The notes: generated by a model not told the origin, from the sequence alone. DNA of 22,444 bases from Promethearchaeota archaeon (GCA_016839585.1 JAEOTZ010000069.1:1-22444); one strand, 5' to 3'; counted from the first letter of the stretch, positions 3,898-20,458 are shown. Translations and numbers: made by a program.

Positions 3898-4080
3898 ATG
3901 ACTAATTGTAAAATTTGTGGATTGAAAATTGGAATTAAAAATTTAAAAGAAGTCTTTCACTTTACCTTAGGAAATACTATAAACGGAAGATTTTATGGTA
4001 ATGAGACTATATATTACCACGTAGATTGCCTAAATGGAAAAAAACACTCTAAGCAAAGATTAATAGCTTCAATTAATTAA
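3898..4080 (+). CDS. Small zinc-finger protein, C-x2-C-x33-H-x2-C (PARP-type/LIM-like treble clef)
   Basis: CKICG near the N-terminus and YYHVDC at residues 39-44. SD-like AAGGA about 8 nt upstream of the ATG. Confidence 0.7.
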   Translation: MTNCKICGLKIGIKNLKEVFHFTLGNTINGRFYGNETIYYHVDCLNGKKHSKQRLIASIN

Positions 4081-4111: not shown

Positions 4112-5272
4112 TTAAATTAAATTAATCATTTCTTTTATGGTTTCTAGAGCTAGTTCTATACTCAAATTGATTAGATCCAATTTTTTTTCAAAATAATTTG
4201 ACTCTGATTTTGATTTTTCAATTTCATCAAAAATGTTAAAGAATTGTTTTTGAGATTCTAACTCCATAGAAATAACTTTTTCTCTGGCTGTAGCATCGCT
4301 CATGTTTATAAAGCAACCATGATTTATGAAAGAGTGATCAAAAGCAGGAAAATACATTTTCCATAATTTATTTTTTAGTTTATCATAAACTATATTTGCC
4401 AATCTTCTGCAATAATCTTTACTTTTATTGCTATAACAGAAGTAAAAAGGTAGCTTACCTACACCATTATTTTCAGATAGATACTCTTGCAATTTCTCAG
4501 ATACGGTTTCTATTTGTTTATAGGTCAAATTTATATGAGTATGATCAGCTGAAGGATTACATTTAAAAAATAAAGGTTTTCTAGAATAGGGTATATTATA
4601 CAGTTTAATAATATTAAATATAATACCTTCCTTGAGCCAGTGATCAAATTTATAATATGGTGAAAGATTTTTATTTAATTCAATTAGAAATCTCTTAATT
4701 AAGGAAGTTTCATGAAAATCTAATATATATATTGGTATTGTCTCGTTTTTCCAAAAATCATCAAGTAAATCTTTAACAATTTTTACTTGTTCAGGAGGTG
4801 GATATTCATCTAAATCTTCCATTCCATTCTTAAATTCGGGTACAAAAGCTCTTCGCCAGAATCTATTAATATTTTCCCCATTTCTTAGATAATATCCCGA
4901 TTTATTATTTTTTTGAGGGTTCAGAAACCCATATGGATTCATTAAAGGCAAAAAAATCAATATTTGTTTATTCTGAAAAACATCACTAGTTTTAATTTCT
5001 CCTTCTTGAAGAATTTTAAAAAATTCTAATATCCCAAATAGACCATTATATTCGTTATGCTGTGCTCCTATGAATAATTTTACATTTTTAATCTGATTTA
5101 TATCTAAATTTTTAGTAATTGTTAAAACTGGGATTATACCATCAGAAATTTCATATTCATTATATTGAACATGTTCTAAATTATTATAACTCTGCAATTT
5201 TTTTAAGATTTCATCATATAATGTTTTTCTATCAGAGATATTCAATAACTTTTTTAAAGTTTCAAGATTCAT
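4112..5272 (-). CDS. M14-superfamily zinc carboxypeptidase / AstE-AspA-like deacylase
   Basis: FIGAQHNE (Zn ligands), FLPLMNPYGF, ENINR (carboxylate-binding NR), ILDFHE (third Zn ligand), candidate catalytic Glu in ISMELE. Confidence 0.8.
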   Translation of the reverse strand: MNLETLKKLLNISDRKTLYDEILKKLQSYNNLEHVQYNEYEISDGIIPVLTITKNLDINQIKNVKLFIGAQHNEYNGLFGILEFFKILQEGEIKTSDVFQNKQILIFLPLMNPYGFLNPQKNNKSGYYLRNGENINRFWRRAFVPEFKNGMEDLDEYPPPEQVKIVKDLLDDFWKNETIPIYILDFHETSLIKRFLIELNKNLSPYYKFDHWLKEGIIFNIIKLYNIPYSRKPLFFKCNPSADHTHINLTYKQIETVSEKLQEYLSENNGVGKLPFYFCYSNKSKDYCRRLANIVYDKLKNKLWKMYFPAFDHSFINHGCFINMSDATAREKVISMELESQKQFFNIFDEIEKSKSESNYFEKKLDLINLSIELALETIKEMINLI

Positions 5273-5278
5273 TTCATT

Positions 5279-6718
5279 TCATTCAAGTAATTTATCCCAA
5301 TCTGAAAAATTAATAATTTTTTTATAATTTTCAGCAATACTTTTGAAAAGAACACATCCTATACAAAACATATTAACAAAATCATCAACAGTTAAGTTTA
5401 AAAGTTTACCATCTTGTTTTGAGATAGCTCGTCCACGTTCAACTTCTATTTGTCCATTATACCCAGATAGATTTACAACGAATTCTTGCTTATTTAAACT
5501 TCCACTATATACTCCTCGAGCAATTCTAGCCAAACCACCAATAGGAATTATTTTTCCCATTTTCTGAACTAAATAAATTCTCATATCAAATGTATGTTTA
5601 CCATTTTTCCATTGAATTAAACTGAAATCTGCCATTTCTTGAATAGTATAAGGATAAGGATTTCTACTTTTCATGAATTTAACAAAAAACTCTTTTTCAC
5701 TCTCTTTAATGATATTTTTTATATTCGCCGGATCTTCATCTTTCGATATTGGCATAACTCCAGCTCCTCCCGAACCACCACTAGGTTTAATGATAAAAGA
5801 CTTTTTATATCTTCTTATGGCATATACCAACTTATTTATTAAATCTTCTTCATCGTATGCTTTAGTAAATAAGAGGTATTTTAGATTATATTTTTCGAGG
5901 ATATCTTTACTAAAATAACTTGCTAAATATGTTAGAGATTTATCGTCAGTAACTTCAAAAATTGGATTTACAATTATAGTATTTATTTTATGAAAATCTT
6001 CCTTAATTAATCTAATAAACTCTTCATTATTAAGGCGCCGAGCAATTCCATCCCCTATTAAAACACTTGCATTTTCATCTTGGTATTTAACCCAATTATC
6101 AGAAAATGTTAAATGAGTAGAAAGTTGTTTATAATCAGCTATTAAAAATACAATTTCTGCTTTAAAATCCTTATTATAGTTAGCTGTATTAAAAATTTTA
6201 ACTGAATATCCTTGCCCTTTTATTTTTCTTCTAAAATATTCCACCATTATAACTTTTTCATGAATTAAAGCATCATTAATTGGTACTCCAATTAAAATTA
6301 AGGCTTTATTATCATTTCTCTTATTTAATTTTCTTGCTTGAATAATAGCTTCATAGTATCCATCATACAAAATAGCTTGTTGCTTTTTTGTAATAATTGA
6401 GAGTCCCCTATGAGATCCTCCATTGGTTTCTAGCAAAAAAAACTTTTTTCCTTCCGGTTCATCCGAAACCATAAAATCAATGCTTCCCGCATAAAAAGAG
6501 TCTTTCTCAGATAAGTAATTATCTTTATCTTTTTCCATTTTATCTAAAGCTTTTTTTCTTACTATATCCGCAAATGTATCCTCCTGTGAAGCTCTTAATT
6601 CTGCAAATGAAACCAAGTCTAATCCAAGGGATCTCCCTAAGTTTATTAATTCTAAATCCGAATTAGTAATGCTTTTTGACATTAATTTTAAAAATTTAGT
6701 TAATGGATCCGTCTCCAT
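5279..6718 (-). CDS. Circularly permuted ATP-grasp ligase (CP_ATPgrasp/COG2308-like; local similarity to YheC/D and TTL)
   Basis: The normally C-terminal metal-binding strands (SIDFMV...FFLLETNG; D81, E97, N99) lie at the N-terminus, ahead of IVNP...TDDK, IIKPSGGSGGAGV, YTIQE, FDMRIYLV, GGLARIA and VVNLS. Confidence 0.8.
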   Translation of the reverse strand: METDPLTKFLKLMSKSITNSDLELINLGRSLGLDLVSFAELRASQEDTFADIVRKKALDKMEKDKDNYLSEKDSFYAGSIDFMVSDEPEGKKFFLLETNGGSHRGLSIITKKQQAILYDGYYEAIIQARKLNKRNDNKALILIGVPINDALIHEKVIMVEYFRRKIKGQGYSVKIFNTANYNKDFKAEIVFLIADYKQLSTHLTFSDNWVKYQDENASVLIGDGIARRLNNEEFIRLIKEDFHKINTIIVNPIFEVTDDKSLTYLASYFSKDILEKYNLKYLLFTKAYDEEDLINKLVYAIRRYKKSFIIKPSGGSGGAGVMPISKDEDPANIKNIIKESEKEFFVKFMKSRNPYPYTIQEMADFSLIQWKNGKHTFDMRIYLVQKMGKIIPIGGLARIARGVYSGSLNKQEFVVNLSGYNGQIEVERGRAISKQDGKLLNLTVDDFVNMFCIGCVLFKSIAENYKKIINFSDWDKLLE

Positions 6719-6842
6719 TAAGATCCTTCCTTAGTAATTAAGTTATATAATATTATAATTATACAACAATTCTTTTTTTATTTTATATATTTATATGGGT
6801 AAAAGAAATTATTCAAGGTATTGGCGATAAACTATTATCTCA

Positions 6843-8078
6843 TTATAGATAAAGATATCCTTGATGATTACCTTTAGTGCTAAGTCTAAGACTTCCTAAA
6901 AATATTTTCTTTATATCGAGTTGTTGCTTATAGGTTAAGTCGGAAAATAATAATATATAATTTTTCTCAACATTGATAGTAAAAAGAAGTCCTATTTCTA
7001 TCAATTCAGAGTTTTCAGTACATAATGCTATAATAACATAATGGTATGGGAGATTAATTAAATCATTAAATTTAATTTCGATCTCGACAATTCTCTCGTT
7101 ATCTTTATCATAATCGGTTTTTATAAATTTCATATCATTTAAAGGGATTGACATTTTTCTAAACTTCTCAAATATCTTAGAAAATTGACTTTGCCTCAAA
7201 AATCTTCTTTCTTCTTTACTTTTTTCGTAAAAATATTTGTTTTTTTCCTTGATAAGATATATTTTCCTATCTTTTCTTTTACTTGATGTTATTTTTTCAA
7301 TCTTCTTTAGTTCTTCGATAGTTTCATCATGAAATACGATTAATACATCAGGATCAACAGTCTTAATAAAAAAATTCTTATAAATAATCCCTGCTTCTGT
7401 TTTTATCCATCCATCTGTATCAATTAATAAAAAATCTGTGTTTTTATTATTTACTAAATAATTGTTAATTAATTCTCTGCAGAATACAGAAACGATAAAT
7501 TTGTAATTTCCTTTAGGGAAAGTACTTCCTATAAATGCAGTGTTCTCAGAATCGATATTATCACTTGATATAATATAATCATCTAATTTGCCAATGTTAA
7601 TAGTAGTTGGAAGATATATAATTTGTTGTCCTAGATCAGAATCAAGATATCCTCCTTTCAAACCTTCCTTAAAAAAATTATTTGCTAGATATTTAATGAG
7701 TGTTGTTTTACCACTACTAATCCCTAACACCATTATTTTTAAAGGTGATTCTCTATTATTTTTTTTTAATTCATCTAGAATTGAATCTTTGACTTCTTTC
7801 CATTTATTACTTATTGAATTTTCTTCTATTAATTCAATATTTTCTTCTAAATTAGTAAATATTTCTACTTTTGAATTCTCTAATGCATAAAGAGGATAAT
7901 TATGGGCACTGGGTACTATTAAGACATCTTGACCTTCACTAAATGATATATTTTTACCAGAAACTTCTTTTATTGGTAGAAAAATCTTTCCAAAAACATC
8001 TATTTTACCATCTAATAAGGTAACTCTTGTAGGTCCTTTTACTAATAACGTGTGCCCTTTAATTATCTTCTTAATCAT
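6843..8078 (-). CDS. Clp1/Nol9/Grc3-family polynucleotide 5'-hydroxyl kinase
   Basis: N-terminal beta domain (TLLVKGP...GKIDVFG), P-loop VLGISSGKTT, DSDLGQ, FIGSTFP, LIDTDGW, lid RRFLR. Confidence 0.85.
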   Translation of the reverse strand: MIKKIIKGHTLLVKGPTRVTLLDGKIDVFGKIFLPIKEVSGKNISFSEGQDVLIVPSAHNYPLYALENSKVEIFTNLEENIELIEENSISNKWKEVKDSILDELKKNNRESPLKIMVLGISSGKTTLIKYLANNFFKEGLKGGYLDSDLGQQIIYLPTTINIGKLDDYIISSDNIDSENTAFIGSTFPKGNYKFIVSVFCRELINNYLVNNKNTDFLLIDTDGWIKTEAGIIYKNFFIKTVDPDVLIVFHDETIEELKKIEKITSSKRKDRKIYLIKEKNKYFYEKSKEERRFLRQSQFSKIFEKFRKMSIPLNDMKFIKTDYDKDNERIVEIEIKFNDLINLPYHYVIIALCTENSELIEIGLLFTINVEKNYILLFSDLTYKQQLDIKKIFLGSLRLSTKGNHQGYLYL

Positions 8079-19360: not shown

Positions 19361-20278
19361 TTATCCTTTAGATTTTTCTAAAATTAATCTTGCTTCATAT
19401 AAATTTAATTTTTTTCCAGCTTTTTGTTTTTCTAGAGCTTTTTCTAATTTATCTTGTTTTAATTTTTCAAGTAATTCATTCTTTTTAGATCTTGGAGTAT
19501 ATTTTTTAACAGGCTTTTTGCTTGCGTAGTAAGGTCGTTTGCCTTTAGAAATTTTTCTTCTTTGATTCATTAATTTCAAAAATTGTTCATGATAATGATC
19601 AGCTGCTTTTTTATTTTCTATTAGCTCTTCCTCCATTCTTTTCTTTTTTTCTTTTAAGGCATTTACTCTTTGGAAGAGATCTTGCATTTTAGCGTGATTT
19701 TCTTGTGATTTGTTTGACCATTTATTTAATTGTTCATAGATTTTGCTTAAATTAATTTTTACTATCTCAATTTTGCGTTCAAGTTTAAAGAGATCACTGT
19801 TTATCTGTTCAGCAAGATATTCTTGTTTCATTTCAGCTAATTTTCTGATATTATCAATAATAGCATTTTCTTCAGCAATGTTGAGATTTTCTGTTTCAAT
19901 TTTTCTTTCTAAATTATCAATTTTGCGTTCAATGTGTTTAATAGAAATAAAATTTTTTGAAGCCTTACCCTCATCAGTAGATTTTTGAATTTTATTCTTT
20001 TCCCCTATAAAATTGTCTAATAAGTTCTTATACTCTATTTTTTTCTCTTTTAATTTCTTTACTTTATTATTCCAATAATCTCTTTTTTTTCTATATTTTT
20101 CCTTTGCAATTTTTAAAGTATTATTGATATCTATCTCAACATCTTGTAATGCATTGATAAAATCCTTTGTTTTTTTATTTAAATCATCTCTTTTCTGTCT
20201 AAAATCTTCAATTTGATGTTGAAGGTCCCTAAAGGATAATCTAGAGCTTTGAGAATTATTGGTTTTATCCTTACTCAT
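19361..20278 (-). CDS. Archaeal coiled-coil protein (COG1340-like)
   Basis: Long heptad K/E-rich sequence with KRDDLN, RDYWN, IETENLNIAEE, SQENH, ADHYH and C-terminal KAGKKLNLYE. Start set at ATG 20278 (MSKDK); the upstream 35 codons look like AT-rich promoter DNA. Confidence 0.75.
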   Translation of the reverse strand: MSKDKTNNSQSSRLSFRDLQHQIEDFRQKRDDLNKKTKDFINALQDVEIDINNTLKIAKEKYRKKRDYWNNKVKKLKEKKIEYKNLLDNFIGEKNKIQKSTDEGKASKNFISIKHIERKIDNLERKIETENLNIAEENAIIDNIRKLAEMKQEYLAEQINSDLFKLERKIEIVKINLSKIYEQLNKWSNKSQENHAKMQDLFQRVNALKEKKKRMEEELIENKKAADHYHEQFLKLMNQRRKISKGKRPYYASKKPVKKYTPRSKKNELLEKLKQDKLEKALEKQKAGKKLNLYEARLILEKSKG

Positions 20279-20458
20279 AAATAAATTCATTAAAGAATAT
20301 TTATAAAAAAGAATTTTATAAATGTAGTTAAGTATGACAATATAATATTTTTTATATATTTTTTGTAAATAAACTAATGACAAAAGAAACCATATGGTAA
20401 AAAATTAAAGATTTGTAAATATATTAGAAATAAATGAAAAATTTGTTTAAAAAATATT

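Follow-up and report, generated by a model that had tools for sequence, protein, structure and literature searches.

All characterised members of the circularly permuted class of ATP-grasp ligases make small amides, namely glutathione, homoglutathione, glutathionylspermidine, peptide-spermidine and, as the precursor of E-64, an epoxysuccinyl-amino acid (PMC12568646). Couples of ligase and hydrolase have been described around ATP-grasp enzymes. In GspS the synthetase is coupled with a hydrolase that reverses its reaction, a fused CHAP amidase, and in the tubulin code an ATP-grasp writer (TTL/TTLL) is matched by an M14-fold eraser, the M14D cytosolic carboxypeptidases (CCPs). Here we analyse a pair of adjoining genes, for a ligase (LIG) and a hydrolase (PEP), in a 22,444-nucleotide (nt) stretch of DNA from a Promethearchaeota archaeon (GCA_016839585.1 JAEOTZ010000069.1:1-22444). 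This stretch, the window, is a complete 22.4-kb contig (C58) of a genome (G000) of 3.45 Mb that is 99% complete, with a GC content of ~26%. A sequence-only reading had taken the two genes for a self-contained writer/eraser pair that parallels the tubulin code. We find that the pair resembles the GspS synthetase-amidase and TTLL/CCP couples but is a member of none, and that it is not self-contained, since it derives from a trio with an RtcB-like enzyme whose gene lies elsewhere in the genome and is lost with the ligase. The new results are this cross-phylum trio, the probable orthology between PEP and an AstE-like partner, at least three separate losses of PEP, and the joint deletion of LIG and the RtcB-like gene. 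The AstE-like and RtcB-like genes of the trio are called c1 and c2, f1 is the Lokiarchaeial family of the window genome, f2 is its sister family, and g1 and g4 are genera.

A permuted ATP-grasp ligase outside the named families

LIG belongs to the circularly permuted ATP-grasps and is a carboxylate-amine ligase whose Mg-binding D/E-x-N hairpin has moved to the N-terminus; in classical ATP-grasps this segment is C-terminal. All the motifs that the sequence-only reading had assigned to LIG were found at the residues it gave: D81 in SIDFMV, E97-x-N99 in LLETNGG, IKP and the Gly loop at 310-320, IQE at 359-361, FDMR at 377-380, GGLAR at 394-398 and VVN at 414-416. That reading had also staked its case on the ligase having an ATP-grasp active site, and K311, the Gly loop (G318/G320), D81, E97 and N99 are not only present but invariant or nearly so in a 43-sequence alignment with identity down to 17%. 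When the LIG profile was compared with the PDB only weak, partial ATP-grasp matches were obtained, the best of them to TTLL7 (E 0.0013). In the alignment with pyruvate carboxylase 2dzd, residues ~38-87 of the family profile (GSxDFMV...ilEtN) pair with the C-terminal Mg hairpin (E/E/N; chain 256-294), and residues 284-331 (IKPxGGSGGxG) with the earlier ATP loop (chain 156-200). The hairpin match is N-terminal in LIG and the ATP-loop match comes later, so that the order is the reverse of that in 2dzd, albeit with weak E-values.

The AF2 model of LIG, built with the 43-sequence alignment as input, has a pLDDT of 92.9. Foldseek placed the eukaryotic glutathione and homoglutathione synthetases at the top of its matches (E 5e-13 to 1e-10), followed by 3k1t, 3n6x, YjfC/YgiC, GspS, Cp1B and trypanothione synthetase (TryS), and a Foldseek-independent scan of 48,161 chains gave an identical list. 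VIA Z was 15.9 for 3k1t, 14.8 for YjfC and 12-14 for eukaryotic glutathione synthetase (GSS) and GspS over residues ~20-440; the ATP-grasp fold is borne out by Z of 8-16 to ~40 ATP-grasp enzymes over residues 137-465. In both structure searches the alignments of permuted ATP-grasps all start at LIG residue 16-56, and those of classical ATP-grasps (LysX/ArgX, Ddl, CPS, PurT/PurK, RimK, bacterial GshB, synapsin, TTL/TTLL and ITPK1) all start only at residue 124-139, with a single stray low-Z row, 7pup. Because the aligned ranges, the reversed profile order and the near-invariant motifs all agree, we conclude that the permutation, as the motif order had suggested from the sequence alone, is real.

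The best structural match, 3k1t from Methylobacillus flagellatus (331 residues aligned, root-mean-square deviation (rmsd) 4.6 Å, LIG 56-469), has a permuted architecture like that of LIG. An ESM Atlas lead marks it as GshA-like, of family PF08886, and GshA clusters occur among the Atlas look-alikes of LIG. It differs from LIG in gene context, in sharing only 11% identity and in belonging to a family that LIG does not match at E<=1, and its function ('putative gamma-glutamylcysteine synthetase') is an annotation only. Eukaryotic glutathione and homoglutathione synthetases (2hgs, 1m0w, 3kal; aligned over LIG 18-438) share the permutation, the Mg hairpin preceding the Rossmann-like domain, but their identity to LIG is 10-16%, there is no sequence-profile match and the substrate-binding elements are not recognisably conserved. 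Since LIG occurs, within Asgard archaea, in essentially a single family, it does not qualify as an ancestor of eukaryotic GSS. GspS/amidase, TryS and E. coli YgiC/YjfC (Z 10-15) are likewise permuted, although the polyamine use that characterises them is not indicated for LIG, and the hydrolase fused in GspS is here a separate M14/AstE-fold protein. The COG2308 ligases (CP_ATPgrasp_1/2; 3n6x, Z 12.0) belong to the same class, but LIG has no CP_ATPgrasp match in Pfam and their partner genes are found neither in the window nor at related loci: as the sequence-only reading had observed, Pfam scans detected no alpha-E, transglutaminase or Anbu gene among the 20 other large open reading frames (ORFs) of the window, and none of these partner families among 98 neighbours of LIG homologues.

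Pfam and NCBIfam gave only sub-threshold ATP-grasp matches to LIG (ATPgrasp_YheCD at 8e-5, ATPgrasp_ST and GSH-S_ATP). The named permuted families PF03917, PF03738, PF08886, PF04174 and PF14403 did not match it at E<=1, nor was there a match to PF03133 (TTL). Searched exhaustively, 1.84 billion cluster representatives (50% identity) gave only 73 clusters that match LIG at E<=1e-3, which marks the family as small and unnamed. LIG is thus of the permuted class, yet outside every named family of that class, and represents a permuted ATP-grasp group that is named in no library.

These comparisons bear on the proposal that LIG is a protein or peptide writer which, in the manner of RimK, TTL/TTLL and LysX/ArgX, extends the C-terminus or a side chain of a protein by glutamate or another amino acid, and that the M14-like enzyme takes these off again like a cytosolic carboxypeptidase. 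An ATP-grasp enzyme paired with an M14-fold protein does mirror TTLL/CCP, the TTLL7 match includes the FDxRxY block, and ArgX/LysX reach a Z of ~13 over LIG residues 139-463. Against this, TTL/TTLL enzymes are non-permuted and give generic matches, to LIG residues 137-467 only and with Z of 7.7-11.8, below the permuted class, or ~9-11 as compared with 13-16 for the best structural relatives, while the full-length structural matches are all small-molecule ligases. With the gene-context evidence given below, we regard a protein-directed writer/eraser as unlikely. The parallel with the tubulin code is accordingly not upheld: LIG and PEP provide no evidence in Asgard archaea for a tubulin-code-like system, or for an origin of eukaryotic glutathione synthetase.

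A divergent, probably AstE-related hydrolase and its repeated loss

PEP is an M14-fold, zinc-amidohydrolase-like protein and probably a divergent orthologue of the AstE/AspA-type partner c1. Its AF2 model (pLDDT 90.6) matches carboxypeptidases A, B, D, N and T with VIA Z of 19-20.6 over ~258 residues at an rmsd of ~3.5 Å, and bacterial CCP-like enzymes with Z of 19.5-19.7. By sequence it is barely recognised: Pfam gave no match, including PF00246 and PF24827, a precomputed PF00246 flag is carried by just 1 of 120 listed homologues, the PEP profile found nothing in the PDB, and the Pfam M14 and AstE models matched no copy in the window genome. The c1 family is found by profile-profile comparison (hhalign probability 87.7%, E 3.4e-6, 183 columns), in an alignment that runs through QH(G)NE, NPxxF, xNR and DxH and in which the c1 signature (A/G)QHG(N/D)EWNG faces AQH-NEYNG of PEP with a gap of one residue. 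From the profile match and the shared QH(G)NE signature, PEP is probably the Asgard counterpart of the AstE-like partner, larger and divergent in sequence. Compared with AstE/AspA themselves (succinylglutamate desuccinylase and aspartoacylase; PF24827) it is ~75 residues longer and has HxE in place of HxxE, and by profile comparison it is nearer to AstE-like proteins than to the tubulin-code carboxypeptidases. Orthology of PEP and c1 would make the association of ligase and hydrolase ancient and cross-phylum.

The M14/AstE motifs noted in the sequence-only reading stand in part. NINR, DFHE, ELE and the M14 fold are there, NINR being equated with the N144/R145 motif of M14 enzymes, which we take to bind the substrate carboxylate. 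The first zinc motif is HxE instead of the canonical HxxE, and there is no family hidden Markov model match. This shortened motif occurs in all 34 PEP homologues compared (57-91% identity) and in the f2 copy, with the third His (H187) kept, so the deletion is older than the split of f1 and f2 and the motif has been kept since. Such a site would suit a catalytically inactive PEP serving the ligase as a regulatory or scaffolding subunit, as would its dispensability in many lineages and its not being recognised by the Pfam M14 or AstE models. The conservation is, however, that of a working active site: Q71, H72, N73, E74, N136, R137, D185, H187, E188 and E339 are invariant in the 34 homologues, and N134 and E337 nearly so. 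With the motif retained since before the f1/f2 split, we think an inactive subunit very improbable.

Both proteins have many homologues (57-97% identity) in Promethearchaeota metagenome-assembled genomes (MAGs), on consecutive locus tags. The homologues carry Promethearchaeota/Lokiarchaeota names and the window genome groups with the same phylum, in accord with the probable Asgard source proposed before. In an even sample of 301 Promethearchaeota genomes, among which related genomes are not independent, LIG is present in 69. It occurs in 64 of the 68 f1 genomes, in one of the seven f2 genomes and, beyond f1/f2, only as three weak partial matches; of the 29 other Asgard families sampled, 21 have none. 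The Asgard LIG and PEP genes look horizontally acquired. PEP is present in 42/68 f1 genomes and 1/7 f2 genomes. The linkage expected in related genomes is complete by coordinate comparison, as PEP lies immediately 3' of LIG on the same strand in 44 of 44 genomes having PEP, with spacings from small overlaps to ~80 nt (<~25 nt within f1), and in five other phyla LIG has an AstE-like neighbour.

The hydrolase is nevertheless not an obligate eraser. No PEP match of any kind was found in 22 of the 64 LIG-bearing f1 genomes, and two further f1 genomes carry stop-containing remnants, of the N-terminal 76 residues in G192 and of the C-terminal 63 in G129. The fetched f1 loci share a common frame of Clp1-like kinase, LIG, PEP or nothing, and a convergent alpha/beta hydrolase. 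On the LIG tree the PEP-less g1 genomes form one clade (support 100/99), with G192 outside it and the g4 genomes separate, which means that PEP has been lost at least three times independently. LIG of the fetched PEP-less genomes is still 58-74% identical to the window LIG (72-74% within g1), and because it stays conserved without PEP we consider PEP an accessory partner. A second AstE-like gene was not found in the PEP-less genomes tested. Repeated loss of the 'eraser' with the 'writer' kept also argues against the writer/eraser proposal.

A three-gene module with an RtcB-like enzyme

A scan with a six-sequence alignment of distant LIG homologues, taking one genome per GTDB species, gave 28 loci from Actinomycetota, Chloroflexota/Anaerolineae, Hadarchaeota, Thermoplasmatota, Methanohalarchaeum (Methanonatronarchaeia) and Promethearchaeota; a member of the LIG family, WP_086636686.1, is also found in the cultured Methanonatronarchaeum thermophilum. 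Compact trios occur, for instance, at loci L017 and L029. Non-Asgard LIG is flanked, mostly co-directionally, by c1 (~310 amino acids (aa), 17/28 loci), which matches the AstE/AspA catalytic domain PF24827 at 8.7e-25, and by c2 (~400 aa, 16/28 loci). In the f2 genome G282 a single strand carries c2, pyruvoyl arginine decarboxylase, deoxyhypusine synthase, LIG and PEP in succession. The ancestral unit is a trio of divergent, putatively RtcB-fold enzyme, ligase and hydrolase, of which the window pair is the local form, and this conserved coupling brings two groups of 'hypothetical proteins' together in a single module. No paper was found in the library searched that links the permuted ATP-grasp, RtcB and AstE-type families, or Asgard archaea with permuted ATP-grasps. 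No conserved small-protein gene was found beside the trio across phyla, which counts against a protein substrate of the ligase, as does the pairing of LIG relatives with transporters. ABC exporters adjoin some trios, an MFS/POT transporter is clearly recognised close to a locus with tandem ligases, and in a more distant LIG branch (metagenome contigs) an MFS-like protein follows the ligase at 8 loci, by a sub-threshold Pfam match in the one tested.

Ligase genes are duplicated, in tandem or back to back, at four Anaerolineae loci (L025, L023, L032, L033) and two metagenome loci (L095/L096), and in one 837-aa protein the ligase is fused to a 380-aa N-terminal extension, a half of the protein for which Pfam gave no match; the duplicated and fused forms may indicate hetero-oligomers or added domains. 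At three other Anaerolineae loci (L027, L028, L043) the trio has two or three peptidase-U32 genes in tandem immediately upstream.

The c2 profile matches only RtcB chains in the PDB (1uc2, 4dwq and 2epg; E 0.02-0.05), ESM Atlas agrees, and PF01139 (RtcB) is found in 2/15 members at 6.9e-5, below its cut-off. The motifs of the family follow one another in the order of the RtcB RNA 3'-phosphate ligase (PNxCG, SNHF, HxSxxE, NHQG, LPHGGGY and a C-terminal L.P...LK), with the Asp of DxxCG replaced, and the copy in the window genome keeps KPNCCG, SNHF, HGSxxE and PHGGG. The neighbours of c2 are phosphoesterases and amide-bond enzymes rather than archease or RNA-repair genes: genes for HD, GDPD and metallophosphoesterase proteins are often next to it, and in one case a gene for a RimK-type ATP-grasp is.

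In the lineage of the window the RtcB-like gene is at another locus and is kept and lost with the ligase. Four f1 genomes are without LIG, and three of these (G099, G249 and G264; 98-99% complete), in which neither LIG nor PEP was matched, are also without c2. At the two loci fetched, those of G099 and G264, Clp1 and the alpha/beta hydrolase flank a clean deletion of LIG and PEP, and in all three genomes c2 is cleanly deleted between metG (MetRS) and its 209-aa neighbour. Just two other f1 genomes score negative for c2, and as metG is missing from both we attribute these cases to assembly gaps. The deletion of two unlinked genes in the same genomes is our best evidence that LIG and c2 work together.

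This link to an RtcB-like enzyme also lends some weight to an RNA-linked system, in which the ligase and the RtcB-like enzyme, perhaps with the Clp1-type kinase, would act on RNA or nucleotide ends, in an amino-acid-containing RNA modification or in healing and sealing. In f1 a Clp1_P kinase gene is the immediate upstream neighbour of LIG, one Actinomycetota MAG has, independently, such a gene upstream of the trio, and HD, AP_endonuc_2 and U32 genes are among the neighbours. The f1 Clp1, however, is built like Asgard Clp1 proteins in general and shows no special closeness to the actinobacterial copy (25-29% versus 26% identity), it stays where the ligase is deleted, and the f2 genomes that have the RtcB-like gene lack Clp1_P (0/7). 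The RtcB-like gene also adjoins GDPD, which acts on small-molecule phosphodiesters, and we know of no amide ligase of the permuted class, and of no AstE-type hydrolase, that acts on RNA. An RNA-linked role is therefore in our view improbable. Across the phylum Clp1_P is patchy, with 63/68 genomes in f1, 0/7 in f2 and none in several large families. The case for Clp1 as a member of the module is weak, as outside f1 its presence across genomes does not follow that of the ligase, and a functional link between the Clp1 homologue and LIG/PEP is uncertain.

In f2, which includes a closed 4.4-Mb genome, the genes after c2 at three loci (L012, on contig C101 of G282; L048 in G210; L052 in G083) are those for pyruvoyl arginine decarboxylase and deoxyhypusine synthase, with an HD-domain gene divergent and a GDPD gene nearby. 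Such a setting, continued by LIG and PEP in G282, together with GspS, YgiC/YjfC and TryS as some of the best structural matches, would fit a polyamine-conjugate ligase of the kind these enzymes represent, joining a peptide or acid to agmatine or spermidine, with the hydrolase as amidase. But the context occurs in this one family, where it may be plain synteny, and is absent from 22 non-Asgard loci; moreover PEP keeps the NxNR carboxylate-binding motif, which, judged by what is known of M14 enzymes, points to a leaving group with a free carboxylate and not a polyamine. A polyamine conjugate is thus highly unlikely.

We favour instead a small-molecule pathway of LIG, PEP and c2, with GTP-dependent phosphate activation, capping with an amino acid by the ligase and trimming or recycling by the hydrolase, a scheme to which we give an even chance. 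The pair itself probably makes and trims a small amide compound rather than tagging proteins. The leaning towards a small molecule comes from the products of the permuted class, the MFS/POT and ABC transporter neighbours and the position of c2 beside HD, GDPD and metallophosphoesterase genes. In the proposed mechanism the ligase would use ATP to phosphorylate a carboxyl group, and an amino acid would react with the acyl-phosphate through its amino group, so that its alpha-carboxylate stays free. The hydrolase, through its N-x-N-R motif, would remove the added residue for trimming, recycling or proofreading. Since the putative M14 N-R carboxylate clamp is kept, the last residue of the PEP substrate probably bears a free carboxylate, and such an end is what an ATP-grasp ligase yields on adding an amino acid. 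The hydrolase step would be optional, as many relatives have dropped PEP. A further reaction of this substrate would fall to the RtcB-like enzyme, in all likelihood the GTP-dependent activation of a phosphomonoester to give a phosphodiester, and for the product a small metabolite, a cofactor or a solute is more likely than a tag on a protein. More tentatively, and we are doubtful here, the trio may be an undescribed pathway that has passed between anaerobic bacteria and archaea by gene transfer and that uses RtcB-type GTP-dependent phosphate activation outside classical RNA ligation. Under this reading, a phosphodiester-linked metabolite or cofactor might be built and then capped with an amino acid by the ligase, or else an amino-acid-bearing group might be attached to an RNA end. 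If the RtcB-like enzyme does act beyond RNA ends, the known chemistry of the RtcB fold would be extended.

Several points weigh against this scheme. The RtcB-like assignment of c2 combines weak sequence scores (7e-5, rounded, in Pfam) with motif order. c2 does not depend on LIG, for it is the wider of the two, being present in 141/301 Asgard genomes compared with 69/301, and many families have c2 without LIG. The co-loss of LIG and c2 may reflect a single lineage event, all three genomes being of genus g4. The zinc motif of PEP is non-canonical, and its metal site is putative. Finally, the Clp1-type kinase, the RtcB homology and the HD, endonuclease-IV-like and U32 neighbours fit an RNA-linked role as well.

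Gene layout and neighbouring features

LIG and PEP form one operon. The two genes are co-oriented on the minus strand and 6 nt apart, as the sequence-only reading had it, and this gap, together with the AT-rich region with GGAAGG before LIG, gives the pair the look of its own bicistronic unit. The AT-rich region is probably the promoter and ribosome-binding site of the pair itself, judging from its base sequence.

Table 1. Coordinates of the ligase-hydrolase pair, its motifs and associated genes (window positions unless a contig is named).
Feature	Position	Strand	Basis and remarks
LIG, circularly permuted ATP-grasp carboxylate-amine ligase, 479 aa	5279..6718	minus	AF2, VIA, sub-threshold Pfam
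Mg-binding hairpin of LIG, residues 75-105 (D81, E97, N99), translation FYAGSIDFMV...FFLLETNGGSHRG	6404..6496	minus	Alignment and profile match
ATP-binding strand and Gly-rich loop of LIG, FIIKPSGGSGGAGV, K311	5756..5797	minus	Alignment, profile match, translation
IQE, FDMR, GGLAR and VVN blocks of LIG, central and C-terminal ATP-grasp domain	5471..5644	minus	Translation
LIG-PEP spacer, 6 nt, junction TGA-aatgaa-ATG	5273..5278	minus	Read from sequence; bicistronic operon indicated
PEP, putative divergent AstE/AspA-type (M14 clan) zinc amidohydrolase, 386 aa	4112..5272	minus	AF2, VIA, hhalign
QHNE of PEP (Q71-H72-N73-E74), putative first zinc motif, HxE	5051..5062	minus	One-residue deletion relative to QHGNE of AstE-like relatives
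NINR of PEP, residues 134-137	4862..4873	minus	Candidate equivalent of M14 N144/R145 by motif and strand position
DFHE of PEP, residues 185-188, with putative third zinc ligand His187	4709..4720	minus	Motif
ELE of PEP, residues 337-339, candidate catalytic Glu on a late beta-strand	4256..4264	minus	M14 Glu270 position, motif only
AT-rich intergenic region 5' of LIG, 124 nt, TATA-like runs, GGAAGG 8 nt ahead of ATG	6719..6842	minus	Sequence reading
Clp1-type P-loop polynucleotide kinase homologue	6843..8078	minus	PF16575 3.5e-28; synteny
c2 member, RtcB-like, 414 aa, locus L047	Contig 37 of the window genome, 9456-10700	minus	Profile match E 7e-121; convergent with metG

The Clp1 homologue is the only copy in the genome and the conserved upstream neighbour of LIG in f1. 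On the other side of the pair, and convergent with PEP, is an ORF on the plus strand (3898-4080) for a 60-aa protein with a CxxC...HxxC zinc finger. Its homologues (33-42% identity) adjoin the 3' end of LIG in four PEP-less g4 genomes, and it is still there in a fifth g4 genome, G099, where LIG is deleted. Although its position beside LIG or the vacated locus in these five genomes would suit a protein substrate for a writer/eraser system, it is missing from most loci and persists where the ligase is deleted, and with so patchy an occurrence it was rejected as a LysW-like carrier.

Further away, a 340-aa protein encoded at 19361-20383 on the minus strand, with weak matches to DUF7121 and to a KIF21A-like coiled coil, adjoins a cluster of ribosomal-protein and RpoD genes. 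On the plus strand, an Eco57I/MmeI-type N6-adenine methyltransferase-like protein of 709 aa (148-2277) is encoded ahead of a strongly acidic protein of 109 aa whose tail is Cys-rich (2369-2698), and the synteny of these two genes is kept across f1.

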